From: Phoronis australis
Taxonomy: Eukaryota; Animalia; Phoronida
Length of the DNA: 64,000 nt
NCBI GenBank assembly: GCA_002633005.1
Contig: NMRA01000271.1
Location: 451,588-515,587, forward strand
Reading direction: 5' to 3'
The first letter of the stretch is position 1. Each line of letters begins with the position of its first letter. A program made the position numbers and the translations under genes. This document shows positions 3,753-52,801 of the stretch, in pieces. Below the pieces are notes generated by a model that saw nothing but the letters and a program-made list of their open reading frames with translations, had not been told where the DNA came from and did no database searches.

Positions 3753-3975
3753 ATGGCCAGGAAGTTTGAATCTCGTATGACTCACATTGACGTGACATTG
3801 GAGAGTAGCGAGGATGAGGAAGAAACTGATTATGAGGACTCCAGGGCCATCGAGGACATTCACTACGAAATGTTTGGCAGGGTGGCAAACAAATGGAAGG
3901 TCTGCACTAACATTGTTGATGGAAAAATTGATGGAGAGGAACACATCAAGATGGATGTCCGGAAAAAACAGTCTG
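3753..3975 (+). CDS. Putative first coding exon (MARKFESRMTHIDVTLESSEDEEE...KKQS), acidic N-terminus
   Basis: ATG 3753 follows the acceptor ttctttcag (3715). The open frame ends at a phase-1 donor G|gtaaat that fits the next exon. A homologous exon lies at 44472-44702. Confidence 0.6.
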
Positions 3976-6900
3976 GTAAATCAGGCCTGAGATTACTGAT
4001 CTTCAACCTGGAAAATTGATAAATGCAATTGCATGACATAATTTGGTTTGAGAATTTTTTCATGCTTTTAGTTAGTCAGGCTAAACTGAATTATAGTCAT
4101 GTGGCGTACTGAAATTTGAGTAAAGTTTCAAGTTGCACGTGATCTAAGCTGTCAGTTTTCGAGTTTAGTCTCGTGTGTTTCTGTACCCATGTGGTCACAT
4201 AAACTGACAGTCGGTCTAAAGTAGAGACAACAGTCAGGCAAATAAAAACCAAAATTCCAACACCTGGTATAAAACGAGTTACTATATTAGTGAAAACATG
4301 TTTTAGAATGAGAGGTTATTCAGTGTGGTTGTAAAACAAACAAGAATATTTGCATGGTCACTAATATGTTCCTTATATACAAAATTTCGGGCTTATCTAA
4401 TATACCTACTAGTAGTTACCAGGTCATGCTGATTTGTTAAATTCTTGGAAAAAGTCGTAAGTTTAGAAAGCAAGATAGCGCTTCCACACTTTATTAGAAT
4501 GAAAAGGATCTCTAAGAGACTGTTGAGCTTGAGCTAAGCTTATTTGGCACGGGATCCAGGTTATTACTGGACTCTGCAGTATAGCTTGGCACTGAAACTT
4601 CAGGTCACATGACATGCTGAAGCTTCCCTAAGTGTGGCATGAAAGTTGAAACTCCACAACATCTAAGTGAGATTTTCCCAGTCTATCAGAGGTTTTGCAA
4701 CGTGCTACGTGATGGACTTCTTAACTGCCTGGAGGAAATAGCAAGATGATTTGCATTTAGCAGTCTTTGTATTAGTTCCTGAGGAAACCAGCGAATAGTT
4801 ACACTCAAGTTTTGCATGTGTGGACCATCACTTTACCCCCCTCTTCCAAAGCATAGAGAACTGCCCCGGGACGTGCTTTCAGAGAAATTGAGTTGTTGGA
4901 TGTTAAATGTGGCTAGTACACAGTTCCATGAACCAATTGAGTTTTCTTCAGTTCTTGAATTTTTATTGCATATCACCTCAGGGAAATATTATAGAAAATC
5001 TATAGAATTCATTCAGTAGTCCAAGATAAGGAGGTACAGTTTATTTGGTTCCAAAAGGGATCTTCACTCTGTATTTTTATAGGATGAAAAGGTGTTGATA
5101 ATGGGCACGCATATGCTAGAGGCTGGGTAGTACAATCATGCAGATGTTTTTGAATGTTGTATGTTTGTTTTGACATGGAATCTTTAAATGTATGCTCAAG
5201 TTGGCAGGGCACTGTGGTTGGCTGAGAAATTCAGATGTTCTGATATGTTGTTTCTCCTATAATTTCAGGAAGTCCTGCTGTTTATAAAGTTGTGTTTCCA
5301 AGCATTGAAGGTACGTATAATTGTTTGGTCTTTTATTCTGCTATTTATGAATAAAATACTGTTTAATATGAAAGATATTATTGATCATGATCATTGTCTT
5401 CTCTGCGTGTTATGACCTCCACCTGTTTTAATTGGGATCATGGTCTCAAAAACATATGCAAGCAAATTTTAAACATCTCGTTGTGGTCAATTCAGCAACA
5501 AACCCGACAATTCCCCCAACCCTTTGACACATCTCTTGGTTACGGTTGACCAAAGGAGACCAAATCTCATTTCCTCCCATGTCTGTCTAGCTGATATTCT
5601 CTCACTAAAGATCGAGTCATGTGATGTCCACTTGAATGTGCAAGGTTCTTGTTACTACTGCGTAATTGATCATTTTATTTGCAGAGAATACAAATTGGTA
5701 CAAGTCTCTTGAGTTTTTTTAGACTAATGTTTGGTGTCGTGCTACTTATAGTGATTGTATAGCATGTCTGTAGTCTTTTACTGTTGTACACATCTGGTAG
5801 TTTGTTGAATGTATTTATTCCTGTTGATCAGCTATAGGTGATGTTTTGCAGGTGTTGCAAACAACTTGTTTCTCCAAGTCCTACCATGGATAAACGTAAA
5901 GTCCCCTGTTGAATTTATCGGTACGTTTATTTTATCAGTTTAAAGTCATTGTAAAATTTAAAAACCATGTGCCTATTCCAAGATGTTTCATTTATATATT
6001 TTTTCACCAAGCCGTTGAAGATAGTGATCTAAGACGATGCAATCCACACCTTTCTGCAGATCTAGCCAGATCAGCATTCAACATTCATTTTGCCTTTTGA
6101 TTTTGAAAGTTTCTGGCGAAAGTCTGCATATAATTCACAGTTCACATTTATGTCAGCCTGCTTTGTAGTGTGCGAAGACAGTTCATGAAGTCCTAGTTGA
6201 AATTGTTTCAGTCGACGCGAAGCAAGGTCGTGAGAAAAAAGATGACTCGTGGAATGTAACAGTGGATTCTGCCAATGGGGAGAAAGTCGCAGTTGATATA
6301 AAAGGTTTGTTGTGACATGTTAACGCCTGACGGAAAACATTGAACTGCTGTTCAATTCTTGCTTGGCATTGTAACTTCAGTTATAAAAAATCTTTATCAT
6401 TTCTTCATCAGATTGATTCACCACAGGGTTGGGCTTGTAGTTACATATTTGGTAGTGGGATGTGGCTGCACTCTAGACCAGTGCTATTGTCTTGGAGAAT
6501 AAGAGAAAATGGGTACCCGAGGCCATTATACCAGGTGACGAAAAAGCATATCAATACATACTACGCTGCTGCTTTGTTGTCACTGAGCCTATTGCCTTTA
6601 TCAACCTGTTCCATAGGAGAGTTGTCCAGTTTGACTTCACCTAGCCATTGTTATGAGAAGATCATCAAATGATTTGTGTAGTATTCCAGTGTTATTCCCT
6701 TAACAGACATAAATCTTTAGTGCCCAGCTTATGACTGCAAGTTGTCCCTAGTATTTTTTCGCTTACTGGCTATTCATTGTAAGTCCAAGACACAGGTCGC
6801 ACAACAGGAAAAGATCTTGTGACACAAATCACGCGACTTAAAAATGTGAAAAAGAAATGTTTGATAATTTGTATTCATGCTTTGTATCTGCTATGTTTAT

Positions 6901-9900
6901 GTTGGTTGACTTAAGACAATTTTGGATACAGTTATCTAGGCTCTAGTAATAGTGAGGTGAAGATTTTCTCATCTTTGACTTGATTCCAATCCATTGCAAT
7001 CCGTGTTGTGACTGGTTTGAACACCAACATTTATAAGTGTCCGGGTTCATATGCAGAATATGTGGCTAGGGAGCTGATGGCTGGCATAAAAAGGTAGACA
7101 CGATCCAAAAAGGATGGTGTAGCAGTGATTTCAGAAAAACCTACAACAAGATTGAGCCGCTTAGGTAAATTATATGAACATAAAATTTTTAAAAATCAAT
7201 TTTTCAGAATTTTGCGATGTCATGGGTAATCAAATGACGCCAATTACGTACACCTTCATGCCAAGGTCTTCTGATAGTTCCATGGTGTCTGTGAAGATTG
7301 GGGACCACCATGTGGAAGGTTTGTGTCTGTTGCACCGAGCTCATGAGGGCTGCATCCTTCATTTAAATAATTCTAACCTAAAAACTAATTGCACTGACAG
7401 GTATGACAAATTTTGAGAAGCAGTTTGATGCCCATTATTTGGTGACGAAAACTGGTTCTTAAAATGCGTTACCCCTTTTAGTGACTATTACCCTTTGTTG
7501 TATAATTGTAAACAATGGTTTTAATGCCTCTCACAGTTTTGTTTCTGGGCTGGGTTACAAATCACATTTAAAACTTATCCACTTGTAAACTAAGGTCCAT
7601 TGTAGCGGGACTGTTATAGCATTATTCAACAATGGCATTGTGATCTGCTTGATGGTGTCATGTCATTCTTGTTATCTGTATAACTTTTGTGGAATTGGGC
7701 CCAAGATTTTGTGCAATGTATTGTGACTGTCAACTCCAAGTTTTTACCAGACTGTGGCCCATTCCAACAAAACTGACTTAGCTAAGACAAATCTTAAAGT
7801 TTAGTAAATTTTAAAATAAAAGTTAAATTTGTCTCAAAACCAATTCAAGAAAGAGATCTTAATTAATTTGACTTAAGTGTTTGACATAAGTTTTGTCTTA
7901 GTTTTGACTAACTTACTGAATGTGGAAGTTTCAAAGTTTGGAAGTTAAGGCAAATCTTAAACCTAAGTCAAAATTAATGAACTTAAGTCAGTTTCTTGGA
8001 AAAGGACCCTGTTCTGTATATGAGATGAACATCTAATTCTCAACTTTGGTATCTTGCATGTTCAGGGTACACAATGTTCTCCCTCGCGGCCCGTACAAGC
8101 TTTCTTAGTAACAGCGTCCTTGTCTCATCAATGTGATAATTCTTTTCTCGCAACCTGCAGTTCTTTTTTCAAACATTTTGTATCATGAATGACAGGAGGC
8201 GCTTGATACATTGTAGAGAACGTGTCTGTACACTACAACTGGGTGGTTAGTAAGAACAGAATTGGGTTCCTAAGAACAGAGTAGCAGGGTATATGAGAAG
8301 AACTGCATCTTATGAGAAAGAAGTGCGGTTATTTTGACCATCCACAAATACGTAGACGGGAATGTCATTAAGATGTCTTGATCTTGTCAAATATTGAGAC
8401 TTTGTTTCAGGTAGCCCAGCCAATGTCCAGTATTCCAGACGACCTTTGGCGAATGACTTGGAAGAGAGTTCATGCAGTAATTGTTTTTTCTTGAAGTTAC
8501 TTAAATTTAAAATAATTCTGTTAACAATTAATTATTGCATTGAATATTTAAACTCATTGAGCACACATAAAGATTTCGTAAAACCACTTTGAGGTGATGA
8601 TGTAGTGACATCGTGTCTAAAATCTCTTGGTCAGTTTACAGCAACCTCTTATTGTCTTAGCAGTTTGGGAGGTTTTGGTTGAACTTGATACTAGAGTTGA
8701 AGCTGTATTCCTCTTGTTAAGCTGACAAATGCCTTGAGTAATTGTGAAAGTTCGCACATTAATATTGTTCCTATTGGCCATTGGCAACATAAGTTTTCGG
8801 AAAAGTCTAGCTATTGTCGCATCCCTATTGACAAATGAAATTTTTAATTTTATTTGTGTCAACCTCAATTTCTAAAAAAAAATTTTATTGATCGTTAATA
8901 ATTTGTGATCGCATTGAGGAGAGTAGGGCTAACACAGACTTTCAGAAAATGTGACTAGTGCAGCGCCTCATAATGTTTTTGTAGCTCCTTCAATATTTTG
9001 ATAAATCTTTATGGAGTTTGGGTTGTTTATTTCTGTTGAGGGAAGCCCATCTGGGGTTAGTTTTCAGTTTTTGACTTCTGCGGCATCTGCTAATTGCTGG
9101 GTCCATCTTAACTAGTTGTTCTTTTGTATTGTTTTCATGACTGAGAAGAACATAAGTGATGCTGTAGATTCATGTGTATCTGGCTATAGTGGAAATGTTT
9201 GAAAAAACCGAACACCCCTTATATCTTAGCTGTTGCGAAGCACACGGTTGACGCATATCAATACATTGTGTTGATCTTGTGTTAAGTAACCGTAGCATCA
9301 TGGCAAATCTATGCCTGAACTCTGCTATGTTTTCAGACTCCCATGAGCGGAATAACATAGGTTCCAGCCTTCCAACCATCCCAGAGATGTCTTTGGATCC
9401 ATATCCTACTTACAGTTCCTCTATGCTTGGACAAAGTCATCAACAGGTGAAGAATTAGTGAACTATATCCTGTAACTGACACCTTGTTGTGTTACACGTT
9501 ATCAGAACTGGAACTGTTTGAGTACGGTTGGCTAATGACTGAATAACCAGCACTATTCTGCATGTATTGACTGTCACTTCATGGTAGTGATTATATTTAA
9601 TGAAACTGGATTTGCAGTTTTGACAAGAGTCTGTGAGTATAACCATTGCCTTGTAATGACCACAATGACTACAACAAGGATTTCAAAGTGGGCATGGTCG
9701 GCAAAATCTGCTCATTTTGCACCTTAAATATAGTTAAAATTGAACCATGAGAAAGCAGAAAGATGACGTTTGAGAATTTGCCAAAAATGTTGGATTTTAA
9801 GATGGTTTGGAAAAGTTTTTAAAGTTACGTACTAGGGATGATTTTTTTCCAGCCTGCCTATGTTCAAGAACAGAAAAATTCATCTAGTGGCTACAGAGTG

Positions 9901-12900
9901 TACGAGTCAGTGGCCCCACATCGGCAGCTTTCAAACAATGAGTACGAGGCACTTCGCAGTGCCTCGGGCAGTTTCAAATATTCTTACTACCCCACCAGAA
10001 GGAGCTCTGTACAACTAATGCCAAAACAGGTATTTTCTAGTTTATGATTGTGACGATTATTATTCAATTGCATCCACACATTATGTGGGTGGTTATTGTG
10101 CTATGACTGTGCAGGCATTTGTCTAATAGTTGCCTTGAAGATACTCTTGTTTACTTTCACCTGTCAATATGGAATGACTTAATTTATGGATAAAGTAGAA
10201 ACATTTAATTTGTAAGTTATAGTCCTACATGTTTCTGTCCTGTCCATGAAATTGATGATTTGCTGGATGAAGAATGGGCAAGTATCATACTCGCCGGTTA
10301 GCAGGCATGTGAGTCAGTGGAAGAACTTATTAAGTTATACCATGCCATCTGTTGGAAATAAGTTTTTAATTGGTTTAGTTATTGAAAGAATTGGGAGATC
10401 TTAGGTTTGTAGCACATCCTGTTCGAACTTTGAGTTAGTTTTCTTGTACCCTCTGACACTGCTCCACCTATTCTGGAAAGTGGCCCTGTGAAAATATGAT
10501 GAATGACACATGGAATTTCGTACGTGTGGGCTTCTATGCGCATGCTTGGTCAGAAGTTTACCCATCACATCACCACCACTTGCTCGCGGCCTTTATGCAC
10601 TGTACATGTTTGCCAATGATCATTGTTCTCCTGATTTTGTTTATTTCGATCATTGCCCGTTGTAATAAATTGCAACTGTATAAGTCAAAGGATGTTGCCA
10701 TAGTATGTTACAGTAAACTAAAAGGGGTTTCCCAGGTTTCAACCAATAGGAATTACTGAATATCATGACATCGGTGAAGCCACGTTAAATAACATTCCAC
10801 AGTACGTAATACCTTTGGCAGCATTGTGAGAGAGTGTAGGTTTCTTGCTGCTTGGATGGGAAAAGTATTTGATGTTCAAATGATGTAATTTTGGAATGCG
10901 ATCCAAGACACACTCTACTCATTTGACTACAATATCTTGGCATACCTGAATGTCATTACAAGAGTTGCTGCTGATATCCTTCGCAGGCAAAAGATTTAGG
11001 TCAATTTCAGAGTTGTCTCCACAAATCAAGTGTGCCAGATAAAGGCACTTGAAATGATACCACAGGATGCAGTTACCTTTCATTGTGGCCACTGAACTGG
11101 AATCACACTTCTAGGTACTTGAAGACATTGTGTTGTACCGTACCAGTCGACGCTTAAGGCATGTGGACCCTGTAGAGTACTCCTCTGTTGAGGTAACAAT
11201 CGGACAGTTTAATCCAAACACAACAACGCATGTGAAGATCACACGTGAAGCATTAAAAATGGGCATTGAGAAACGGGACGTTGAGCTCCTGGATGTTGGT
11301 GAGTCTTGTACTGTACACAGTTGTTATAAAGACATGGAATAATTTCAAATAAATACACCGATTCCTTTTTATGTGCCCACATATTTATATGTGGTGGCAT
11401 ATTGCTGTCGTCTCTGTCTGGGCGTCCGGCGTCTGCAGCTGTATCTCCTAAACCCCTCGCAGGATCTTGATGAGATTTAGCAGATGTGTTCCTATCAAGC
11501 TATCAACAGATGACAGCAAATTTTGAGCCTTTTTGGCAACTGTTGTGCCCCCTAGTGGCAAATTTAGTTTTTTACGCTTACCTCTGTATCTTCGGAAGTA
11601 CTCAACGTATTATCACGATGAGACTATCCTTTATCATGATGAGACTATCCTTTCATTTTTGGATGGATTAAACATTATAGTTTGCGCTACCCAGTGATTA
11701 TTTTTACTGTTTTTGAGTCTGCAGGATCTTCATTAAATTTGAAAAGTGTATTTATATGAAGCTAACAATAGACGACTGTCATAATATTGTACTATCCTCT
11801 GTTGACTCTTCCAGTGTCTGTAGACTATCGTGTTGCATACTCTATGTTTAAGCCATGTTTCCTGTACTAGAGAGCTCTCTCACTCTTCCTCCACATGTAT
11901 ATTATTCCTAATAAATCTGTGTTTATCTAGTGCCTCTATAACCATCCATAATATAACAACAACGACTTTCAGGCAGACGCTGTGACCCTAGTGGCAATTT
12001 CATTTTTTTCCGTTTTCCTTCGTTTCGCTGAAGTTCCTTGACAGATTTTTATGAAATTTGGTAAATAAGTTTCTATTAAAGAAGTGATGGCGTGTTCTGT
12101 TTTCAGATGGATATTATGTTTTACGCCATCTAGTGGCCATTTTTATGACACAAATAAACAACTTTATGAGCACACCATTTGCGGTGCATTCGTGGGTGCA
12201 TTTCAATGATCTACGTTGCTTTTGTTTTAGTTTTTAAAAGAGTGTGTTTTATATATTTTAAGAAGTTACTCAAGATATAGGGCAACTACTTGATCTCCCC
12301 CACCCACTTCACTATTGCTGAATAAAGTTTAATCAAAATTATGAATGCATCACAGTCTAAAAACAATTGATGGAAATTGTCTAGAGTCAATAACTAATAG
12401 TTATGTGTATATTCTCTCAGACTGCACTCCTAACTCACTTTTCATGAAACAGACCTCAGATGAAGCATTTTCAACTTTTTTGATTATATATATTCTGGCT
12501 ATCTTGTTTACCAAAAATTCCTTGATCTCTGCAAAAGTTCATATTCTCGTTTCCTTCAAGTTGGCACTCACGGCAACTGTTTTCCTTAGTTGTTGCGATG
12601 ATGTTTCAATCAATGGTAGTGCGGCAGTTTGTGATCCTGGAAAATGAGTTATTTTGCTCGAGATCAGAGCCTTTGCCAAATTTTAAAATTAGGCGATATT
12701 GATTGTCCCAAATTCAAGAATTGAGGTCACTGAAAGACGATCGCTCACCTTGATATTACGCTTCATGTGCAGAAATGTTCTGTCAGTGACAATTTTTGAC
12801 AATTTTAAGATTTGTCGAGTCTGTTTTCAGAAAAGGTCAATGTCCGATATTTGAGAAATATGATCAATAACGAAATCGCTCTCATATCTCAACCTTCAGA

Positions 12901-15900
12901 ATCCAGAAACTTCAATTTGAACTGGAATTTCGGTGTCCCATAGAGACTGTCCCAAAGTGGGGAATTATGGTCATAATCTTCTTTGCAGTAATTCCTTTCT
13001 GGAAAAAGCTGAAGGAGGACGGAAGTTGGCACCCGATGATCCAGATTGCCAAGGAAAACAACGCTTTCTTGTTCTCGCGTCTTGCTCTTAAACACGAGCT
13101 GCACATCCCGGAACCTCACGACTACTTTTGCTCAAAAGAGAACTGCCCTGTCAAGGACTCCCTAAAGCACTCACTGTTGAGGATCAACACATACAAGGCT
13201 CTGGCACAGCCTGCTCACCTCCTGGCCAAGGAAGACCCCATCAGAGATGCCTTTGAGCTGCGACGACAGATGATGGCAATGAGCAATCTGGACAAAGAAT
13301 TTAAGGTAGAGTACAAAAGTATTCATACAAAGTGACTCGGAATTCTCCCATCACGTTGAAAAAATTTTTTTTGATTTCTTACAATTTTATGTTAACCTAA
13401 TCCTTAATTCTTATAGCAAAAAAAATAAAATTATTCTGAAAATCCAAAGTTGCTTTTTTAATTATTTTTTATCAATCTTCAGTATCATATGGCTTGACTG
13501 CTCACCAGCTCAGTGACTGACAAGTGCGGTGGAGCTTATACAATGACACTAGCTCTAATCTAATCCTGTCAACAAACATTGCATAACGGGCAATCGAGAG
13601 TGCTGTACCAGCTGATATAGGTGTTGAAGTGAGACTTAGAATAAAATAAACCATTTTATGATCATAATGTAAAGTTGGTGGTGAAATGGTAAATTCCTGT
13701 TCCGAGACTGAGCCTGTTTGTTCGTCTGCAAAAAAATCAAGTTGTATACGACAAGTCCTACCGAAGTCATCACTGGAGATGCAGAAATCTATGATGACAA
13801 CGGAATCTGGAACTGCACTCAGCTTGAGGAGTCCATTCAGATATTGTGCGTGAGCAAGAGAAGTCAGAAAGGTGTGGTGACTTGCACGAGGTCACTGAGC
13901 ATTGACGGTGTTGGTATTGCATGATGCGAAGGTCAATTAGAGATGAACTCTCAGTGATCAAATCAGTGGCCAAAAACCTTCATCAATATGACACTACCTT
14001 ATTGTGGTACTGAACAATTTTTGGTTGTGCGTCAAGCCGAGTTGGCACCAACTGCGGGAATCAAACCCTCATGGCCTTGTAGGCATCTTGGGGAGAGCGC
14101 TTCCTTAGGGGAGGTTTATGGAGATTTGCTGGAATTGTCTCGAGGTACCCATTCTTGTCCATATTTGTAATGCATGTCAGCTCTTGTTCTGTGCATCACT
14201 ACCTTTAATGCTTATATTCCCACTGAAGTACTTTTTTCCAGAACGAGTACATTTTACTTTCGGATAATGTCGAGCAGTTCTGCTGTGATATGGCCAAGCT
14301 GTGTGGTCGCAAGAAGGAGATAGACATATTCCTGGATAGGTCACACTTTGACTTGGACAAGGAGAAATCGAAGCTTGGAACTGTGGAGATGGGTTACAAA
14401 TACGAAGCTAAGCAGGTTAGACAGAGCATATGATATGTTTGATGTAGGACTGACCCTGCAGTTTGGTCAGTTCTGCAGGAATGACCTATAACTAACATAA
14501 CATGTTGCATACAGATCATTTTCACTGTAAAATTTAAAATTAATAAATCTTAATTTTGTGTGACAAACTTGTTCTTTGGGAAATGATAAATTATTTCATT
14601 TTTTTATTTCCAAATTGTTGGAGTGGTGGACTATGTTCACCATTATTTTTCAATGTTTTGATTTTGTTTTGTTCAGAAGTAGTGCTGATGAGGTCAGTTT
14701 TCCTTGGAGCTCTGAAGCAGCATTTGTGCAGTGTTGAATCAACTCAAACTCATTCTCACTACACGTCGCAGCTTCTTAATCCACCAAAAGTACTCTTAAG
14801 CTTGCCTTAAATGCTTGAGTTGTTTTCAGTGAGCAGAATCTTTAAATCAATTTCTCATTTCAGTTTGTAGCTAATGAATTTGTACAGAGCCATCTACATG
14901 AGGAGTTCTATGGCAAGTCTCCACGGCAACAGAAGTTTTTCTTGAAACACAACAACTTCACAAAGCTCTTCATGTGTTTAGTGTTGTCACCTGTGGTGTT
15001 ACTAATGATTCTTGGCTACATCCTGTTCGGAGGCATAAAGATTCTAAAGGAAAAGGTAAAATGTGATTTGCTGGACAGGTGTTTATATGATACCTGCAAC
15101 TCGTTTTGGTGTAAAGAATCATCGCTGTAAGACTCTGCTTATTTTACTTTTTGTTGTTCCTGTTTAAATACAAAATCTTATCTTGCTCTGTTAGGCTATG
15201 CAGGAAACGCTGCATTTTTTGTTCTCGACTGTTTGATGTTCATTGTATAGTACAGCTACTGAATTATTTGGCTTCGTCCGGGCTGCCTCCGGTCTGGCTA
15301 GGCGTGACTGTAACTAGAACGCAAGTGTGAGAGAAATCAGTCACGGTGTTCTCACGCCTACTCTCCGGGAAGCACTCACACTTACCTCCGGTTTGGTTAA
15401 TTCTTTGCTCACGCTTTCCTCACGCATTCCTCACGCTTATCTTAAGCTTTCCTCACGCTGTGGTAATGTACCGTGATGGTGCACCAGGCTAATAGAAATA
15501 CCATCTAGGTCTGTGTGTACAGTAATCCATTGTTTTGGCATCTTATACCACTGAGTTCCGTAATTTGTCGTATTTGTCACTCAAAGGAACTTCTTTAACT
15601 CCTCTGGTGTCACACTTATGTAGTCCAATTTATAACTCTAAATCATGTCCCATCAACAACTTAACCGTGGTGAGTAAAGACATAGACCTAAAGTTAAGAC
15701 GAACAATTAATGTGATCCTCTGCTTGTGTTCACAGTGATGTTTGCATGGCTAGGAGACTCCATGAAACCCATCACAGTTGAACGTACTTAATTCGCTCTA
15801 AAAATGACCCACGCATCTTGACTCACTACTCATGTATCGTCACTGTGTGGGTTCTTTCAGCGCACTCGTGGAACAGAAAATTTCAATAAGCTCACTTCTG

Positions 15901-18900
15901 TGGCTGAAGGCATGTAGCATCTCCATCCCCTACTACGAGCAAATGTTACGTGCCCAACCCCTTATACCGGTTTATTTGTAGCCCCATCCATTTAGTATTT
16001 CGTGCTAACGTAGTCCGGGATATTCTTTACTAAAATAATTATAGCAGTCACCTCTCTGACACGTCAATTGGTTGTGATCACATTCTCCACATAATGCCGG
16101 AATTTGGGATAAATGTGTGCAGAATCATGAAGACAATTGAATTATTTCGTCAGGCACACGTGTGTTAACATTGCTGATATGTTTATTTCAAAAACAAAAT
16201 AACGAGTGAGAAATTAAGGCCTGGGGTCTGTTTCATGAATTGACAAAGACATCAGTGTGTTATTCATACTGTATGAATACGGGACAGTATCGTAAAAAAA
16301 ATCATCGACAGTAGAAAGATGCACTCCGAAAAGGCGCAACCACAATTTCTGGGATTCACATTTCCTGACCATAATTTTTAAGCACCGATTTGTCTGTATA
16401 ACAGACCACACTTGCTCCATCAGTCATGCCAGTTTGTTTGCGTAAAGCGCTGCCTGTTGAAAATTTGACCAGCCAATCACAAACACCGGTGTAAAAAGAA
16501 TTTCCTGAGGAAAATTAAGTGATACCTGCGTGCTGGNTATTTCGGGGTGCGCATGCGCCACGTCCAATATTTCCGCCATCTTTAACCGGAAGTCAACGAT
16601 TTTCTGCACAATTGTAGCACATGCGTTCTAGTATATTCGTACCGATTTTCAGCCATGTACGTCGAAAAATGCGGCCTCTACGAGTATTTGACTGTGAAAT
16701 CGGATACAAAATGGCCGCCACGTCCGCCATTTTGTATCCGATCATGACCAAAAACAATAGGCTTCCAGGACTTCCCGATCTACACGTTGTGTGCAAATTT
16801 CGTGAAAATCGGACGAAAATTGCGACCTGTAGAGTGCGAACAAAAAAAAAAAAAAACTTGACGACAGAGCAACATACTTGTCGGAATTCGAAGAATTCCG
16901 CCAAGTAATAATAGCAGTCAACTCTCTGACACATCAATTGGTTATGATCACATTCTCCACATAATGCCGGAATTTGGGATAAATGCGTGCAGAATCATGA
17001 AGACAATTCAATTATTTCGTCAGGCACACGTGTGTCAACATTGCTGATATGTTTATTTCAAAAACAAAATAACGAATGAGAAATTAAGGCCTGGGGTCTG
17101 TTTCATGAATTGACAAAGACATCAGTGTGTTATTCATACTGTATGAATACGGGACAGTATCGTAAACAAAAATCATCGACAGTAGAAAGATGCACTCCGA
17201 AAAGGCGCAACCACAATTTCTGGGATTCGCATTTCATGACCATAATTTTTAAGCACCGATTTGTCTGTATAACAGACCACACTTACTCCATCAGTCATGC
17301 CAGTTTGTTTGCGTAAAGCGCTGCCTGTTGAAAATTTGACCAGCCAATCACAAACACCGGTGTAAAAAGAATTTCCCGAGGAAAGTTAAGTGATACCTGC
17401 GTGCTGGCTACCACCTAGCGGCACGCAGGGAACCAGCGAGTGTTCACCCCTTACTCGCGGTAAGTTCCGGGCAGAGTCACACTTAGGCTCAGGCTAGCTG
17501 TCACGGTTGATTCACGCCTCGCTCTCCGGTCTATCTCCGGTTACGGTCATGCTTAGCCAAACCGGAGGCAGCCCGGATGAAGTCTAATAATTCAGTGGCT
17601 GTACTGTATGTAGCTTGCTGGGCTCTTGCTTAAAACTGTGCTTTTGATTGACAGCTGTGTTGCTATTTCTCTTCAGTACCCTATCCCATTCTACTACATC
17701 AACGCGCTGAAAGACCCGATCATCAAGTTCTATATTCACACAATGTCCTATATCCTCTTCCTGCTTCTACTGCTGGTTAATTCCCTGCTGCCACTTGCTG
17801 ATAACCAGTCTCACCGCAATACTGGCTTTTCATGGATGCTGTGGTGCATTGCATTCTATATTCTGGGTAAGAGAAAGACTTGACCTCATTACTTGGGGCT
17901 AAGTGAACTGAATAGTCCTATCAATAGGGAAGTGGACAATGTGCTTAAGCCATTTCAAACCTAAAAATGCATTAAATGAAGTTGGCAACATCCCATGAGA
18001 GCTCATTAAATTGTAAATGAACATTGTTCCTCTTGGCTGTACTTTGGGAGCAAGTTTTCAGACATAGTGCAAAATTGGTTGAATACACGACGCTTGTCAT
18101 GAATCTTTATTCCATTCCTTTCGTATCCTCGGAACAAAGTTCGACACTCAACAGAACATTGGTAATTAAAAACAACTGATCAAGAAGCATAATGAAAAGA
18201 CATACGATATTTCCTAACATGCTTGTTTAATTCTTAAGTGGCAATAAAATGATGCAGTAATACCACCACAGAACAAAAGCTGGAGACATACACAGTGGGA
18301 CACAGCAGGTGTGAAATACTGCAAAGAGTGACAAATGTAGGGGGGTGACAGGAAAGTCACGCAAACAAGTATAGCTTGTTGTACAGCCCTGCTTGCTGCT
18401 CATTCAAAACAGGCTTGTCGAATGCAGTCAAAAAGGACTCCAATATTTTCAATCCCAGCATATTATGCTCTACATACCATATTGACATGTTTTCCGCAAT
18501 TAGTTGTATTCAACCAATTGTTTCTCTATACTTTTAACAAAATGCTTTGTCATATACCATACCTGAATGTTTGGATGAGAACATTAAGTGTATAAATGTG
18601 ATCAACAAAAGGGTAAATGCTGTTGTAGCTGATAATGTTATGTTCTTGAAGTAACACTCAGTGTGTGTTCTTGGATAAAGTTCTGAGGCCTCTAGGCTTG
18701 CTAGTGTTTAAATCTGATGGGGTTAAACTTACTCACCTGGAAACACTGTTAGTTAGACACCAATGTAAACATCATTAGAAAGGCTCCTGGTGATTTATCT
18801 TCTGCAGGTTATGCCTGGGCTGAAGTGAAGCAGTTATATATGAGAGAATACCGTGCATACTTCCTCAGTGTTTATAACTGGTTGGACTCGCTCATGGTCA

Positions 18901-21900
18901 TTCTGTACATGGCCTCGTACGCTTGTCGTGTAGTGGCCTTGTTTAAAACGAAAGATGCTTTGCATTTCCAAGAAAGAAATCCAGTCGGACCGTATCCAGA
19001 AGATGTTCAATATTACCTGGAAACGGGTGGGTTTTAGCTGAAGTGTGTTCATTCGTATGTTTTCCATGAACTGTTTGTGGACTTTTTTGTTGTCGTTCTG
19101 TTTTGGGCTTCAGTTCTGAGACTGCTTTGGAGCAATTGAATCTGAGTGAAGATGTATTTCAGATACTGACTTTACCTGAGATGTTTGCATATTGTTATCC
19201 TAGCAGATGACATTTTGAAACCAAAAGTCAAACCTTTAGTGTATGCCTAGGTATAGCAGTAGCTGGGTTTTCCATGTAAATGCCAGGGATTAATTCTCCT
19301 AAATAGCATTCCGTAATAGGAACAGCAAATTTTCCTTGACTGTAAGAAAGAAATTACAACCAAAAAGGATATTAACTCTTCAATATCCATTAGGGGAAAG
19401 TTTAATATAGGGTCCTACTGAGTACATTTATTTTTTTTCCAAATAATCACCATGTGTGCATCTTTGTAAAATTTCCCTTGTATATCATGCATTCTAGGCA
19501 TATATTCTGCTGGATTTTTATTGAAATGCTCGTTTTGTGGCAATATGGACAATTCTGTATTTTGCTGCACCAAACTTCCCTCGCTCAGTGTTACTGGCTG
19601 TCTTCATCAGGTGACAAAAGTACGTCAGGCTGAACCTCGATTGTCCTTACTGTGAACTGCTGATTACCTTCACTTTATTGTTTAGACCCCAAGCCACCTT
19701 GCCATCTGTGTGGTGAGTGAGTGCTTTCCAGGCATTGTTCACCCTTGCTACCCAAGGCCAAAAGTAGATACCCTGAGTTTTAGATAATTATAGAGTAAAC
19801 AACCAACTGAAGGTTCCTTCTCAAGCAACTAAACCTGCCCTCTGGTTGACGTTGAATACTACTAATGGTTCACCCTTCATGATCCATCTTACTCCATGAC
19901 TGACTGTTTTTAATTTCAACCACAGAGGTTGCATGTCTCTTATGGTAAAATGAATACTGTCGAAATAGTACAGTATTGTTTTATTTGCTTCAAAGGGAAT
20001 CCTTAGTTGCTTGTTTCACCTCTTTGAGTGAATCAACTAATCACCTGCTTTAAATGTCTCCACAAATGCAAGCACAAACTTAGGATATTATGCTTAGCTT
20101 TTGCCATGCATTTTGCAATGAAGTATCATATTTATGAATATGTGTTTCAGACCGCAGCAAGTGGTCAGCTACTGACCCTGAGATTGTGGCTGACTCTGTG
20201 TTCGCTGTTGCCAATCTACTCAGTTTTGCTCGTCTCTCCTACGTTCTTCCAACATTTGAGAGACTTGGACCCCTGTTGGTCGTTTTAGGTACTTCCTATG
20301 ACATTGGCTTTTAAAGTTCCACATACTTCTTATGCAACCATGTATGAAATAAACATTTTGTTGTCTGCGTTGTGTATTAGCACTGTCTCTAAGTTGATCT
20401 GTTGATAGTTGGTTTCTGGCTATTATGTAATGAAATTGACCACTTGCACTTTGCTTGAGTAGAATGCACGATTGCTTTTGATTTCTAACCTGTTCTAACC
20501 GCTCCACTTATTGTTTGACTGCTGACCCGTTTTTGGCTGCGTGGATTATTTCAAAATAACTCCGAAGTCATTATGAAACTTTGCAAGGTTTTGTTGGTAA
20601 GAGCAGGTTCATGTCAGTTTCCACCCCTATTTGGACAATGGCAGTGCTCTGCCGTTTGCTAGATACTGAAAGAAGTCATGCTCTCCATACAGATTTCTAT
20701 TGTTAGCTGTCCAGTATGGTAATTATGATAATGATTTTTTTTCTTAATGTTCGTTTTTGATGAGTCACATTTCACAAAATGAAGCTCCGTATATCCATCA
20801 TTTTGCGTAATAAATTGAAGAGCGTTTATCGTACTCTCTGCCTTCCAGCCAGTCTAACAGCAACACTATTGTATTTCAGGTAAAGTCCTGTGCGACACCT
20901 TACAGTTCATGGCTCTCTTTGTGATCGTCTTCGTTGCATTCTTGGTAGGAATGCAAAATCTCTACAAGTTTTATCCCAATGCAACATTCTCCTCGTAAGT
21001 GTCCTCTTCTGTGTTGTCAGTCTTTTTTCTTTTGCAGAATTTGAAGTCAATGCATTCATACTGATATCTTTTCTGATCCCTGTTCTTTCTTTTCCCGTGA
21101 CTTTCATGTCTCATGAGCTACCTTTTTTAGTATTCNAAAATTTCCCTTGTATATCATGCATTCTAGGCATATATTCTGCTGGATTTTTATTGAAATGCTC
21201 GTTTTGTGGCAATATGGACAATTCTGTATTTTGCTGCACCAAACTTCCCTCGCTCAGTGTTACTGGCTGTCTTCATCAGGTGACAAAAGTACGTCAGGCT
21301 GAACCTCGATTGTCCTTACTGTGAACTGCTGATTACCTTCACTTTATTGTTTAGACCCCAAGCCACCTTGCCATCTGTGTGGTGAGTGAGTGCTTTCCAG
21401 GCATTGTTCACCCTTGCTACCCAAGGCCAAAAGTAGATACCCTGAGTTTTAGATAATTATAGAGTAAACAACCAACTGAAGGTTCCTTCTCAAGCAACTA
21501 AACCTGCCCTCTGGTTGACGTTGAATACTACTAATGGTTCACCCTTCATGATCCATCTTACTCCATGACTGACTGTTTTTAATTTCAACCACAGAGGTTG
21601 CATGTCTCTTATGGTAAAATGAATACTGTCGAAATAGTACAGTATTGTTTTATTTGCTTCAAAGGGAATCCTTAGTTGCTTGTTTCACCTCTTTGAGTGA
21701 ATCAACTAATCACCTGCTTTAAATGTCTCCACAAATGCAAGCACAAACTTAGGATATTATGCTTAGCTTTTGCCATGCATTTTGCAATGAAGTATCATAT
21801 TTGTGAATGTGTGTTTCAGACCGCAGCAAGTGGTCAGCTACTGACCCTGAGATTGTGGCTGACTCTGTGTTCGCTGTTGCCAATCTACTCAGTTTTGCTC

Positions 21901-24900
21901 GTCTCTCCTACGTTCTTCCAACATTTGAGAGACTTGGACCCCTGTTGGTTGTTTTAGGTACTTCCTATGACATTGGCTTTTAAAGTTCCACGTACTTCTT
22001 CTTATGCAACCATGTATGAAATAAACATTTTGTTGTCTGCGTTGTGTATTAGCACTGTCTCTAAGTTGATCTGTTGATAGTTGGTTTCTGGCTATGTAAT
22101 GAAATTGACCACTTGCACTTTGCTTGAGTAGAATGCACGATTGCTTTTGATTTCTAACCTGTTCTAACCGCTCCACTTATTGTTTGACTGCTGACCCGTT
22201 TTTGGCTGCGTGGATTATTTCAAAATAACTCCAAAGTCATTATGAAACTTTGCAAGGTTTTGTTGGTAAGAGCAGGTTCATGTCAGTTTCCACCCCTATT
22301 TGGACAATGGCAGTGCTCTGCCGTTTAAATTTGCTAGATACTGAAAGAAGTCATGCTCTCCATACAGATTTCTATTGTTAGCTGTCCAGTATGGTAATTA
22401 TGATAATGATTTTTTTTCTTAATGTTCGTTTTTGATGAGTCACATTTCGCAAAATGAAGCTCCGTATATACATCATTTTGCGTAATAAATTGAAGAGCGT
22501 TTATCGTACTCTCTGCCTTCCAGCCAGTCTAACAGCAACACTATTGTATTTCAGGTAAAGTCCTGTGCGACACCTTACAGTTCATGGCTCTCTTTGTGAT
22601 TGTCTTCGTTGCATTCTTGGTAGGAATGCAAAATCTCTACAAGTTTTATCCCAATGCAACATTCTCCTCGTAAGTGTCCTCTTCTGTGTTGTCAGTCTTT
22701 TTTCTTTTGCAGAATTTGAAGCCAATGCATTCATACCGATAACTATTCTGATCCCTGTTCTTTCTTTTCCCGCGACTTTCATTTCTCATGAGCTACCTTT
22801 TTTAGTATTCTGATGTAGAGATTACATGACAAGTTAATATTATGAGTGTTGAGATCTTTCTGTTTGCAATGTAAAAATTTGAATTACATTAGATAAAATG
22901 ATCCCGGATTTGCAGATATACTGCATTTATTTGTTCTCAGAAGAATGATGATGGTATGTAACCCCTATAGTCCTTTAAGTCATCATTCCCGTGAGAAAAT
23001 AAATGCAATTTATTCGAAACGTCAGGTCATATTATCTTAATTTACATGGTACACTGAATGACCACAACACCCTGTGGCAGTTCTTTTCTCATGATCTGGA
23101 AGTATTTCTCAAACACCTTTTTCTTTTGGAACCACAGTTGGGCCCAGTTTTTCATTTCTTGCTGTAAGTAAGTAATTTTTTATTATAGTGACGTGTTCAA
23201 ATGAATTTAAGCAATGAATACGTTACAAAGACTAGGAACACCCAGCCCTCCACGGGGCTTATGAGTCACTTAAGATACATGATACAAAAAAGAAAAGACA
23301 AGTGTACACGCATTGCAAGAGGACCAGAAAGAGAAGGCCGAGATAAAAGTGATCTTAAATAAATATAATTTTTCCTTACTTCAAAAACATTTTTGATGAA
23401 AACTGAAGTTTTTCTAATAACATCTTTTTGCATGATTATAATTAGTTTACTTTCACAGCTTTCAGCACGGAATTCTGGATATTTAATATCAACATGACAG
23501 TAAAAGGTGTTTCTGGCATCTACGAAAATGGACACTCAAACAGAAAATATAGTTCAGTTTCAACCTGACCAGTGTGACAAAGACAGCAAATTCTGTCATC
23601 AAATTCTAGTGAACGAAAACGCCCAACCTCAACCAATAGCTGTAGGGTTCCGGTTCTATTTTGAGCAAGAATTGACCTACTAGGCCGAGTTAAGTCTAAA
23701 TGCACGTAAGGCTCAACTTCAGACATTCTTCATCAAAACATAGGTTCTTAACTTTGGTTTCGAACGGCTTTCAAACAACCACCTATTACAGGCCAAATCA
23801 TGCAAAATATTCTTACAGTGAGACAGATTAATGGACGTAAGTTATGAAAACAATCCGAAATCCTTAATTCTTCAAAAATGATCAAAACTTCAGAAGACCA
23901 ATCATTAATACAAGTAGTGTAGTCCCAGCAAAATATTCAATATGTTAGTCTATCAACCTTGAAATTAATAATACGATTCCACATTCTCAAAAGCTCAATT
24001 TTCCGCCTAACACTGGGGAATTCCCACCCCATGTCACCCATAACAGCTTCAGCGAATTTGTGAATGCCCAAGAAAAATTGCGCGGCTCTATTCTGAATGA
24101 CATCATAATCCTGTAGACTAGAGCCGCCCTAGACACCTACGCAATAATCTCTAACAGGCACAACACAAGCATTGAATAATGTAGTGAACGTTCTGTACCT
24201 CATATTTTTATTCTTTTTAAATTTATTAATTAAAGCGCCCAAAGCTCTTCCGGCAGATTCGGACAGAGGTTTAGCAGTTTCAGAAAACTTCAATGTTCAT
24301 TTAAAATTATTCCTAAATATTTGTATTTGGGTACATATTCTAGGTCTAGTCGAACCAACCGAAATGGATATAAACTACGAGAGACACGCTTGGATTTGAA
24401 GTGAATAATATTAGTTTTTTCCTGATTGACAATTAGCCTCCGTATAGAGCACCATTTATCAACTATATTCAATAAACCCTGTAAATTTTCTTCGCTCTTG
24501 GCAAGTACCACTATATCATCAGTTTTAATCAGACCTGGTTTACCGGTGACTCGACTCGGCAATCGTTTAGCCCTTATTATGTTCACAGGATGACCAATCT
24601 CGGCTACAATGTCTTTGACCAAAGCATCAACACTTTGGTTATCATTGTAAGGCAGGTTAAATATCACTACTGTCTTGACTTCATCATATTCAACAGTCTG
24701 TGTACCATTACTCTCCAGTACCTCAATCCTACCTCTCAGCTGGTTGATCTCCATTCATTTTGTTAAATCATCTTTGACAGCATTGAGGTGACCCAGCAGG
24801 AGTATTTTTGAGTCTTCAATAGCCTGACCCAACTTGCAGTGGTTTTCATCTACTTTGCTCATGAACTTTGTCCAAAGAAACCTCGTCAAGTGACACCGAT

Positions 24901-27900: not shown

Positions 27901-30900
27901 ATTTACGGAAGGGTTATTTAGCTATGAAATATGTACCTTTCTTAAAAATGGAATTTTGACTCAAAAAGGTATTAACATACTAATAATAATAATGACACAT
28001 GATATAAAACATTTTTTGTATTGCCAGATCTGTTTTCTTTCACCAGTTGACAAAGCCTAGTGTTTTGCTATACCAGTTAGAATGGAGGCCACTAAATAAA
28101 CTTTGAGATAACTTAATGGGTTGGCAGGCCAGTATTTAGAACTTTGTTTTTTTTGTACTATGTTGTTTTGACGGTCAACTGAACACAATTTTAGTTACTA
28201 GTATTTTATATTTTCATCCTAACTCAATGAAATTTCTTTATATTTACAGATTTGAAGGCACATTTGATAACCTGTTTTGGGGAGTGTTTGCCATGACGGA
28301 CAAGGATTCAACCAATTTTAACTCACAACAGGCTGTGGTTGAAACTGTGGGCTTCTTGATGTTTGGAACATTCCATGTCTTAATTGTCATCATGTTACTC
28401 AACATGTTTATTGCTATGCTGTCTACGTCCTACGAAGCCACTGATGTAAGTATTGACGGTTGGTCGTACAGTATGCCCAGAATGATGAATAAGTCATTTT
28501 TTAGAATTCAAATTTTTAGGTTGAGATAAATTTTCAGCTTGTTTCTGAGAAATGACCGACTAAAATGTCATGCTAGTATAAATAGGCTTTGGTGATAACA
28601 GACCAGTAGATTTCAGAAATGATGATACTACAGCTACACCTGACAGCGGTTTTGAGAAGTTATGGGTGAAAATTGCATACTACGCATAATAATTGAATGA
28701 TCCTTTTTCAAGATTTCTGAATTTTCTTTACAGTTTTATAGGTGTGTTTTCAGCACATTAAGCGTTCAGAATAGACCAATATTTGTAAGTTTTGGGGTAT
28801 GTCAGCAGAAAGTGGGTTAGTCTAAATGATGGATGTTGACTTAGAAAGTAAGCTAGAGTCACAGATAGCATTGTACATTTTTGAAGACTTACTGGTAATA
28901 GATTCTGTTGTGTAGTGATTGTCTGTAAAATCTGATATTTGGTATTATCAATTGATGATACTAGGTAGGTATGTGGACGACAGTTTGTCTTATGGGTTCA
29001 TAACTGAGTGAACTCTAATTTCGTTGAGGAAAAATTGAGATGAATTTCCTATTGATAAGTGGTCTGAATCGGAAGTTTTCTGTGGTGGAAGGTGGATTTG
29101 TTGTTGCTTTGATTACTCTCAGTATTTATCTGTAGGTGAATACTGGTGTGCAGACATAGCATTGACACACTTGTTCGCACTTGGTTACAGGAGAGGAAGG
29201 ACGTAGAGTGGAAGTTCTCCCGCGCTGGGCTGTGGCTGGACTATATTGTCAAGGGTGAAACGCTTCCAGTGCCTTTCAATATCGTCCCTACTGTGAAGTC
29301 TGTCATTCGCATATTTGTGCGACTCAAGGCTCTGTGCTGTTGTGGTGCCAAACTAGCTCTGCAGAGGGTATGTGCAGTCATCTGTTTTTTCTGTTCAGGT
29401 CTTAATCATAATGTAGTGTAACAGTTATAATTCATGGCTACCACAAACACAGAGCTATATGCGTTGAATGCAAACTAGCACAGCTCATAGTTCATATCTG
29501 CAGAGGAAAATGAGCCCTGAAAGTTTTGCCGCGTGAGGAGGTGAAGTGAATGTCTCTGTTGTTTACCGGGCAATCGAAAATCCTCGCAGCCGTGTTATGT
29601 GAGCTTAGTGCTTTGCCAGTTACTTCCGGAAGCCAAAATTAATCATTATATCAGCTGACATCAACAAATCTCTCATTGACTCATTGTTACTGTGTTCACT
29701 ATTACACTCGATTGCCTCTCACTGTATGCTGACACCAGTTATAGTGTAAGGTTATCTTTACCTGGGGCAGCTGACTGAGCTTATAGTTTTCTGTATGCAG
29801 TAACCTTGTTTAAAACTGCTCAGTATCCCAAATTCTGTCCATTAAGTTGATTTAGACCATTTGTCATGATAAAATTGGCCTCAACTTGTTACCCTGACTC
29901 AAAGTGTTTTGTGGACTTTGGAAGTACTTGCTGTACATCAGTGCTTGAGACTTGGCATTAATAAATCGTGTTGTGCACAGAAAGCAATTTTGCTGGACAA
30001 ATAGGTTTTAGGTACTACTGGTTCGGCACATCTGTTTTTTCTCGCTACGTCTCAGTATTTGAAATTAACTGAGGATGAAGGTAAGGTATTTTGCTAGACA
30101 TGTGAAACATTACAGTAATAGTCATTTTTGTAAATAAGGTCTGACATATCCTTAAGCATGGTTTGCACTCGGCATAAAACAACATTTTGGTGAAATTTAT
30201 ACTTTTGTAGCAAGGAAGATAGTCGTGTATGGCAATTCTCCACTTATTTTGCACAAGAAAATTGTCCCATTTTGCTAATGCTAGTTACTTTACTAGTGAC
30301 GATGGAAACTTTGCCAAATGTTATTTTATGGCCTGTACAGGTCAGTTCAAACCAATCTAGTAACAGATTAGATTAAAGTTTTTCTAATCTTTATGGGTTA
30401 TTGTTTATGAAGAAATTTGACAATAGACTTTCACTTGTCCGCCATGTGGTGTCCTAAATAAGTGAGGAATTACTGTAGAAAGTAAATGGAAGGTCTTTTT
30501 TGACAAGCTGATTATTACTATTTCATTGGTCCATTAAAACTTTTAATAGTGTATGTTGTAAGCTATGTGAGTTAAACTTTTGTCAACTTTATAAATGTGG
30601 TGAATGCTTTGTTATAGAAAATACAAAAGTCCAATGACAAGCACAAACTCTTCAGAGTGCGGTACCTGAACTTGATTAAAAAACTGAAGTTAAAGTACGC
30701 CAAGTCAATCCTCGATGGACAGGATATTGTGGTCAGCATTAATGAAGGTAATTTATTGATTTAAAGTTCATAATTATTCAAATCCAGCAGCTAGCGTTGT
30801 GCCAGTTTTATTTTTGTTGTTTTTTTCCATTTATCAATTAGTCTATCTTTGAGGCAAGTTTGGGACCTAGGAGTGCATGCAGTGAAGTCACAACTACTCA

Positions 30901-46048: not shown

Positions 46049-46540
46049 TTATGTATTTATAATTTCAAAAAGAACATCATTCATTATTGTTTCATCGCTA
46101 TCACTGAATTTAAACTCGAAGATATCTTCCCAAAAGGTTTTTGTGTTGTTATAATAAAGAAACAAGTGCATCAAAGTGTCTGGGGCTTGATTACAAAATG
46201 TACAAGCAGAAGACTCCGAGACACCTATTTTGTAAAGATACAAATTTTTACATAATATTCTGTCAACTAGTCGATACTCAATTTTACATCTAGAGAAAAA
46301 TCAAAAACATTCAAATGCACTGTTTTCCAACGCATAATTAATTCATTACTCATTTCAGAAATCCATTTACACAGTGAGATCGGTTTTATCTTCATATTAT
46401 GGCATATAACGAACATTGATCTAAACTCTTTCTTATTTTTTGTTATTTGATTTGACAGTTCCAGACTATGCGGCAGACGAAATGATTTAATGAACTACAT
46501 AATAAGTCTTTCATAAGGTGTTATTAAGTGCTAAATCCTG
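46049..46540 (-). mobile_element. L1/Tx1-type LINE 3' fragment
   Basis: LYKIGVSESSACTFCNQAPDTLMHLF....TKTFW is a zf-RVT-like motif. Confidence 0.75.
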
Positions 46541-51517: not shown

Positions 51518-52615
51518 CGAATTTGGGAGATGACTTCAAAGAATTGAAATGCGCTCTTCAAGAAGCTAAATAGGAATATTGCTTTCCAAAGACGTTAAAT
51601 TAAGATTTTGCAGGTTCTTGTGGGAGAGGACAAATCGTTGCCCATAACATCCCCTGAAGCCTGTAGTCTTAACTTGACGCCCTCGCGTTGGAGGGGTAAT
51701 CATCTATGTAGAATCTAGACATGGTGTTTACCTTAAATGCCCTCTATACTATAACCATTAGCTAATTTAATATGTTAACATTTGGTTACAATCTTGCTCA
51801 AAATGGCCACTAGAAGGCGCTGTTGCGTATTACGCTGTCGAAGGCAAGCAGTGCAGTAACAAAAATGATTTATTTTTATCTCACGTTGACATTCAACTTA
51901 TTCACATGTTTGGTAGAGCTAAATGGCCTATAATGAAGAATTTTTTGAATATTCCCAGCTGCCATAGTGATATGTAAGATCACGCTTGTCGTGTGGTTTA
52001 AGTGGGGCTCAGGTAAACTAAGCTGTTATCAAGTCTGTTTAGGCTGGGGTAATGATATGAGTTAGTGAGAAAAGAACTGTCACCTCTATTACTTTAACAC
52101 GTTCTTGTAGATGTGTCGTTGCGTTGCAATTTCAGTAATCGAAAAACGTGCATACTTTGAATCAAGTATTTTTGAACAGCGTCATTTTATAATTTATCGG
52201 TAATGACATTCTTTCTAACGGCTTATCCTTGCTTATTTCATCTCTGACAGTAATAGGACAATGTTTTTTCTTCAGAGATTGCATCCAACTTCGCTTTATA
52301 CGTTCCATTGGAAATACAGTTTGAGAAATCCTGCCAGATAAAAGGTGATTAATTTCATTATTTTGAGGTTGTGTCAAGTGAAAAACACCTGTCCTCCGTA
52401 AACGGTTGAACTAAGTTACCATCTGAACTCGCCGTTCAATACCAACTTCTTTATGCCTCACTGCTAAATATTTTCTCTTGGCTGGTAGATTTAAAGTGTA
52501 TGAAACATGACATTGTAAGTAAAACGTTGTTGAGCATAAGGGAGAATTCTCCAAGGTCTCATTTTGATTGAACTTTTTAAAATTTTATTCTTAATGTCAT
52601 CTCCGCTCTGTTTAG

Positions 52616-52801
52616 TGTACCTCAACAAGGATGTTGATCAACAGCGAGTGACTAGTGACATAGATCTATCTGTCACTGTCAATGGTCGCCCAGTTCCATT
52701 CATTGTTAAGAGTGGCCAGTTTCCTCTGTCCTTCGAATTCTGTCCTCTATCAGCTGATGATCACGTGGTCTGTGTTAAATTCAGAGGCTACGACGTCCAA
52801 G
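52616..52801 (+). CDS. Isolated exon encoding a filamin-like repeat (V)YLNKD...SVTVNGRPVPF...FEFCPLSADDHVVCVKFRGYDVQG
   Basis: Acceptor ctctgtttag, donor G|gttagt, phase 1-1. The F.P....H.V.VKF.G..V.G pattern is that of filamin repeats. Confidence 0.7.

Follow-up and report, generated by a model that had tools for sequence, protein, structure and literature searches.

Channels of the beta-TRPC group carry four ankyrin repeats, and gating through phospholipase C (PLC) and diacylglycerol is a property of TRPC3/6/7. According to the accessible part of PMC8539334, TRPC channels are defined by the TRP boxes after the sixth membrane segment (S6), and the number of their ankyrin repeats is 2–6. Filamins bind actin through a CH-type actin-binding domain (ABD) at their N-terminus and sense force via paired repeats (PMC3143143, accessible sections). 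Here we describe a locus of the phoronid Phoronis australis in which a TRPC channel and a filamin-type repeat are quite probably fused in a single protein. It lies in a stretch of 64,000 nucleotides (assembly GCA_002633005.1, contig NMRA01000271.1, positions 451,588 to 515,587 of the forward strand), which is called the window below and to which all coordinates refer. The original prediction for this stretch was a TRPC channel whose ankyrin region is partly replaced by a filamin (ABP280) immunoglobulin (Ig) repeat.

The DNA of the window is AT-rich and of animal type, and interspersed repeats are numerous in it. The gene model consists of 20 exons (E1–E20) on the + strand at 3753–34951, joined by 19 GT-AG introns, and encodes 1078 amino acids in a frame without internal stops. 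The product starts with an acidic head, followed by a filamin-like repeat (residues 105–195, approximately) and a linker rich in Ser; then come two ankyrin-like helix pairs, TRP_2 and the complete TRPC core. The exons are as follows.

E1, 3753..3975, +, putative first coding exon with ATG, open frame and phase-1 donor; the least certain exon
Head encoded by E1, residues 1–74, acidic and predicted disordered; filamin profile z 0.2
E2, 5269..5310, +, 42 nt, phase 1/1, just ahead of the filamin-like match; RNA depth 3–11x
E3, 5852..5920, +, 69 nt, phase 1/1, where the filamin-like unit begins; small contribution to the profile score
E4, 6212..6304, +, within the filamin-like unit; acceptor 6212 is the best-scoring
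E5, 7208..7318, +, core of the filamin-like match; RNA depth 4–16x
E6, 8411..8476, +, last strand of the filamin-like repeat and start of the linker; joined to E7 in 8 reads
E7, 9337..9446, +, Ser-rich linker with read joints to E6 and E8; FoldIndex negative
E8, 9853..10029, +, Ser/Tyr-rich linker; in-frame −45 nt allele in 9 reads
E9, 11115..11298, +, with the first ankyrin-like helix pair in its 3' third (residue 340 on); aligns with Lingula residue 203 on
E10, 12989..13305, +, second ankyrin-like pair and TRP_2; second Cys of HxxxCxCxxC absent
E11, 14242..14415, +, TRPC linker helices
E12, 14864..15055, +, pre-S1 region
E13, 17677..17866, +, membrane segment, S1 region
E14, 18808..19026, +, membrane segments; Ion_trans, E value 2.3e-4
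E15, 20151..20288, +, S4 region; second copy near 21820–21957
E16, 20880..20994, +, S5 region; second copy near 22555–22669
E17, 28250..28445, +, pore helix, filter and S6; PKD_channel, E value 1.1e-6, and Ion_trans, E value 1.3e-4
E18, 29191..29367, +, TRP box 1 and Pro-rich box 2
E19, 30618..30747, +, basic C-terminal helix, placed by frame and splice scores
E20, 34638..34951, +, last coding exon with stop, placed by frame and acceptor score

In leave-one-out splice scoring, 18 of the 19 acceptors reach or exceed the 94th percentile of the AG sites sampled, and 18 of the 19 donors reach or exceed the 89th. The E6 donor and the E9 acceptor are the two that score weakly, and both are on joints seen in RNA reads. 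E2–E6 are each of phase 1/1. The acceptor of E4 at 6212 scores 9.5, while the in-frame alternatives (6182, 6191 and 6197) score −6.6 to −8.0, and the filamin signal is kept whichever of the four is used. The peptides quoted in the original prediction are found where it placed them, in one frame across GT-AG introns. It counted six to seven small in-frame exons upstream of the core; 3753–13305 contains ten exons, eight of them small and internal (E2–E9). The first quoted peptide, encoded by E2, precedes the filamin-like match, which starts near residues 105–118.

The channel core is clear. As predicted, E10 contains TRP_2 (PF08344; E value 6.7e-16, 58.7 bits against a cut-off of 27), and Ion_trans is matched in E14 and E17. 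In PDB, E10 is matched best by TRPC6 and TRPC3. A profile of 39 stored TRPC proteins covers residues 374–941 at 517 bits, including the pore helix and the TRP boxes. TRP box 1 is EWKFSR at residue 878, and the Pro-rich box 2 is aligned after S6.

The filamin-like repeat was evaluated on proxy profiles of PF00630. Proxy profile 1 is based on thirty bacterial repeats; the alignment of these with five more recovers filamins, gelation factor and TRIM repeats in PDB. Proxy profile 2 is based on 27 eukaryote-like repeats out of 62 from metagenome loci, 35 being left out as bacterial or Big_1/invasin-type. All seven proxy repeats sampled pass Pfam Filamin. E3–E6 obtain 19.9 bits on the proxy filamin profile, and the best of 3000 random stop-free pseudo-exon chains from the same window obtains 3.4. 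The score falls to 7.1 without E5, 9.3 without E6, 15.1 without E4 and 19.6 without E3. On proxy profile 2, the full model reaches 14–16 bits. The glocal z of the spliced unit is 7.3, which none of 150 shuffles reaches, and that of the reversed unit is 0.8.

A second filamin-like unit is present downstream, represented by two paralogous exons.

Paralogous exon, 52276..52344, +, with the length and phases of E3
Paralogous exon, 52616..52801, +, matching E4 and E5 and ending at the intron position of E5; its acceptor is poor (−6.8)

The alignment of 52616..52801 with E4+E5 scores 60, against −12.7 ± 9.2 for shuffles (0/2000 reach it), and its filamin profile z is 4.2–5.0. HHalign of both window units gives 92.8% against filamin (E value 4e-7, 75 columns) and 8.8% against a 24-sequence profile of Big_1, which is the one related Ig family compared. 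With a profile of the two units, seven of the top ten matches are filamin repeats, which make up 1.4% of the searched residues and are mutually related. No exon or TRPC core follows the second unit as E6 and the channel exons follow the first: within the 64-kb window there is no matching E6 or TRPC exon downstream of it, and no second TRPC core beyond the duplicated E15 and E16. The second unit may head a paralogous channel beyond the window.

Two further duplications touch the gene. The segment 44212–45450 (+) repeats the E1 region and the beginning of intron 1 at 78% identity, and its frame is shifted by 1 nt near 44540; it may be a recent partial duplication, a pseudogene or an assembly error. 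The segments 19468–21135 and 21137–22810 form a tandem 1.67-kb duplicate, 98.5% identical with one N between them, so that E15 and E16 occur twice. These are likely two alleles assembled in series, the alternative being a real exon duplication.

On these comparisons, the most apt description of the unit is a strongly degenerate filamin-type repeat. It resembles the Filamin/ABP280 repeat (PF00630) of filamins, Dictyostelium gelation factor and the single-repeat TRIM3/45/71 over about 75 columns, including the characteristic C-terminal pattern. Its score is much lower than that of typical members, and it lacks the conserved DNGDGTY-type loop of the proxy profiles. It differs from filamin proteins in having one repeat instead of a tandem, with no CH match in the exons scanned and a filamin z of 0.2 over residues 1–95. 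We infer that the repeat would fold as an Ig sandwich. The Ig repeat of the original prediction stands out from chance controls; the likeness is weak, however, and comes from proxy profiles. A Pfam scan of exons one by one gives no Filamin match. In PDB, neither single filamin-like exons nor their small alignment retrieve a significant sequence match, a word-based homologue search with the two filamin-like exons returns nothing among 24 candidates, which is weak evidence, and a filamin search in one archaeal phylum returns nothing in 251 genomes. E1–E2 were considered as the tail of an earlier filamin repeat and rejected (z 0.2 and 1.4; 1.75 in another profile test).

RNA reads were taken by species label from three raw runs (X1–X3; about 18–19% of each) and a contig set (X4), with depth counted at a 90% threshold and a second pass at 85% for joints. 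X4 contigs fell mostly on repeat bins. In X1–X3, exons 1–12 are covered by stranded RNA, and exon bins carry a single read orientation, which is + strand RNA under the usual stranded library. The depth per exonic base is about 3–16x on E2–E12, with E8 lower at 1.4–3.3x, and it is zero in two repeat-free intron bins. Reads fall on the 5' part of E1, but the last 40 nt of this exon are barely covered (0–1.4x), which leaves the start at 3753 as the least certain part of the model. The E6–E7 joint is seen in 8 reads (2, 0 and 6 by run) of a diverged allele with a net +6 nt in frame and no clean GT..AG row, the E7–E8 joint in 5 exact reads and 6 of a +12 nt allele, and the E8–E9 joint in 19 exact reads. 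The E9–E10 joint is backed by homology: the sequence across it aligns to a protein of the brachiopod Lingula anatina with one small gap. E6 gives half of the filamin score and is joined to E7, so the channel transcript itself contains part of the domain. We infer that E2–E5 are spliced onto E6.

Over 8411–11298, exonic reads diverge from the window by several percent, with in-frame indels of +6, +12 and −45 nt. The cause may be very high polymorphism, or reads from a different population or species that carry the same label.

The Lingula protein is XP_013384878.2, annotated as "TRPC6-like". A HMMER scan with E10 against 1.84 billion representatives gave 305 matches, of which 150 are listed, and among the matches listed this protein is the best match of the spliced model (368 bits, the next being 315). 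It is 38% identical over 545 columns from model residue 340. Like the model, it has no Pfam ankyrin match, two helix pairs before TRP_2 and an incomplete Cys motif for zinc, although a different Cys is lost. Unlike the model, it has a Pro/Ser-rich low-confidence annotated head without filamin signal and keeps the filter Gly. In quick trees the two are joined with support 100; alone, the model and the Lingula protein are each placed beside lophotrochozoan TRPC3/6/7-type rows (97 and 94, respectively). These trees are quick searches of TRPC rows only, with no outgroup, from which 10 of the 39 canonical rows were dropped, and 8 more in the single-row trees. Long-branch attraction as the sole cause of the Lingula pairing is rejected, because each row alone goes to the same place.

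Compared with beta-TRPC channels (TRPC3/6/7 and their lophotrochozoan expansion, as far as described in the accessible part of PMC12980990), the model shares TRP_2, the six-helix core, the pore helix, the TRP boxes and the tree position. Beta-TRPC channels differ from it in their Pfam ankyrin matches (29 of 37 rows), full zinc motif and filter Gly, and in having no Ig domain.

The ankyrin region of the model is reduced. Single-repeat profiles find ANK1–ANK4 in two held-out controls at 20–54 bits, and none of the four gives anything above zero in the model. ANK1 and ANK2 profiles, which score 25–45 bits in controls, find nothing in residues 1–340; four ankyrin repeats are not found. In the AlphaFold model of the Lingula protein (37-row alignment), confident helices occupy 201–212, 217–233, 239–245 and 249–257 before TRP_2, while residues 1–198 mostly have a confidence (pLDDT) below 50. 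Model residues 340–397 align with few gaps to this helix-pair region, and the Phoronis protein likely has two ankyrin-like helix pairs, to judge from the predicted Lingula structure. The two degenerate ankyrin-like repeats of the original prediction have no more than indirect support, from this alignment, and go undetected by the four single-repeat profiles.

The idea that the filamin repeat replaced part of the ankyrin region is not supported: the Lingula protein has the same ankyrin loss with a disordered head and no filamin match. Because the loss is common to a protein without filamin, the simplest order is that the loss came first and the filamin gain later. The change looks like ankyrin loss and a separate filamin gain, not replacement; the Lingula gene model may be incomplete, which would alter this order. 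The phase-1 introns around the unit fit a gain by exon shuffling into a lineage already without the first ankyrin repeats.

The original prediction knew of no described TRPC with such a layout, and neither the stored relatives nor the searched literature contains one. On all 282 stored TRPC relatives, the filamin profile gives no score above 3.7 bits. PF00630 is absent from the best 120 of 168 relatives of the Lingula protein (0/120). A word-based homologue search with E10 returns nothing among 32 candidates, which is weak evidence. Among the papers retrieved from the open full-text literature, none presents a filamin-TRPC fusion or an ankyrin-reduced TRPC branch in its title or the opening of its abstract, with subscription journals and InterPro outside the search. 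The word "filamin" does not occur in the main texts of PMC12980990 and PMC8539334; the supplementary domain tables of these two mollusc surveys could bear on novelty. The locus is likely a real domain fusion giving a new TRPC variant.

In the ESM Atlas, the Lingula protein retrieves no Filamin cluster among clusters of at least 50 members, for each of which at most three families are shown. Its top feature match is an 86-member TRPC cluster, commonest in hemichordates, with no ankyrin in the three listed families. A cnidarian TRP-like cluster has VWA domains in 65% of its members. Both are leads at most. In Gadus morhua, CAL8377674.1 is annotated as a PR/SET domain fused to TRPC, and is possibly a merged gene model.

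The whole is read, with confidence a little above even, as one expressed and fast-evolving TRPC gene whose ankyrin region was cut and which gained a degenerate filamin-type Ig module for docking, not a gating spring. By analogy with TRPC3/6/7, the product would be a tetrameric cation channel opened via the PLC/diacylglycerol route. The linker (residues 189–297, about 110 amino acids) has negative FoldIndex and is predicted disordered, with allelic length differences of +2, +4 and −15 residues. The filamin-type domain would be a partner-docking module on this predicted-flexible leash. A tetramer would carry four of these domains, some 150 residues away from the ankyrin remnant. By binding beta-strand peptides of partner proteins, or one another, they might position or cluster the channel.

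Several observations weigh against this reading. In the core, the filter position is Ala, where 109 of 114 stored proteins have Gly and 5 have Ser. The second Cys of the HxxxCxCxxC zinc motif is missing, while the motif is full in 271 of the 277 stored proteins that have it. With the filter Gly and one zinc-site Cys lost, gating or selectivity may differ from TRPC3/6/7. The quick trees have long branches. In the repeat, the glocal score of the unit, 16.5, is at the bottom of the range of true repeats (16–110, median 69), and Big_1 domains reach up to 21.5 on the same filamin profile, above the unit. The local score on the bacterial proxy is 4–8 bits, and a TRPC control ranked first in one round. 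The only stretch folded, the paralogous exon of 62 amino acids, gives five strands in AlphaFold with a pLDDT of 58. Foldseek on this model of poor quality finds no match with an E value below 0.001, and the best Z in VIA is 2.8; a filamin-B domain at Foldseek rank 22 (E value 7) is no evidence. In the RNA, the junction reads shown cover E6–E9 only: the joints from E1–E2 to E5–E6 and the E9–E10 joint are not among the displayed rows, in which repeat-derived rows are dominant. Finally, E6 reads reach the end of intron 5 in 8 of 8 cases in X2, 2 of 13 in X3 and 0 of 4 in X1.

The very low profile score invites another explanation, that the repeat is real and on the transcript, yet has no function at the channel, being either a passenger in decay or some generic Ig-like domain. 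No relative keeps the repeat (0/282 stored proteins, Lingula included), and the frameshift in the neighbouring copy of exon 1 speaks for quick turnover of the locus. We regard this as unlikely, given that frame, splice sites and expression are kept across five small exons. Moreover, in about 31 columns around the repeat motif, 9 residues are identical between the two paralogous units, even though the units can no longer be aligned as DNA; this suggests that the fold is under selection.

The RNA pattern could also mean that E1–E5 are a separate transcript or a minor isoform; the main channel mRNA would then begin with E6 or shortly ahead of it and use a later Met in the linker. Such a start would agree with the absence of the E5–E6 joint from the displayed rows, the X2 reads that all run into intron 5, the poor coverage of the E1 3' end, and a Lingula relative without such a domain. 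However, the repeat needs E6 for its completion, and the E5 depth matches that of E6, E9 and E10 run by run. No site with many read starts was found. Fifteen of the 25 E6 reads stop short of the intron, where the upstream depth is near zero, so most would be spliced to an upstream exon. This alternative is quite unlikely in our estimate, and the filamin-like repeat and the ankyrin-reduced channel most likely belong to a single gene, as originally predicted. The reads at the end of intron 5 (8385–8410) carry two changed letters, which could correspond to a retained intron, an allele-specific acceptor or an internal start.

What does not hold up well is the built-in cytoskeletal tether that the original prediction compared with NOMPC. 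Under that idea, the repeat anchors the channel to the cytoskeleton and conveys force to its gate, in the manner of NOMPC's ankyrin spring. The tether of NOMPC is N-terminal, and the repeat sits at the same position. TRPN/NOMPC is likewise a group-1 TRP channel with an N-terminal module able to reach the cytoskeleton. In the accessible texts, filamin repeats unfold or expose sites under force (PMC3143143), and Filamin A ties polycystin 2 to the regulation of mechanosensitive channels (PMC5727099). On the other hand, there is a single, worn repeat here, and the force switch in PMC3143143 needs the neighbouring repeats 19–21. No CH actin-binding domain is matched, and just about 85 residues lie ahead of the unit. 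TRPN has 28–29 ordered ankyrin repeats (PMC12980990, accessible part) against about two and a disordered linker here, and this linker of variable length would absorb slack. A force tether is consequently very improbable. A bolder version is just as improbable: a small family of invertebrate TRPC channels, duplicated in tandem, whose built-in filamin Ig domain grips the cortical cytoskeleton via a partner, making a tethered mechanosensor out of a messenger-gated channel and an independent invention of the NOMPC type.

The remainder of the window contains repeats and fragments. One interspersed repeat family has copies at 11388–12226, 25429–26118 and 48060–51516 and is heavy in RNA reads; the depth exceeds 100 on the interspersed-repeat copies near 11.3–12.2 kb. 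A direct repeat of 508 bp (97%) is found at 16033–16539 and 16903–17410. Open reading frame fragments at 24290–24982 (−) and 46049–46494 (−) presumably resemble broken proteins of long interspersed nuclear element (LINE) retrotransposons.

The N-termini of TRPC channels are very uniform across animals. A TRPC without its first ankyrin repeats, and with an Ig module in one branch, offers a natural experiment on the purpose of the ankyrin dome. It likewise bears on whether a TRP channel can have a filamin-type link built permanently into it. Should the domain do no more than dock partners, it is a lineage-specific curiosity. The mechanosensitivity of TRPC channels has long been disputed, and if it is true that the domain passes force, the locus would bear on that question.

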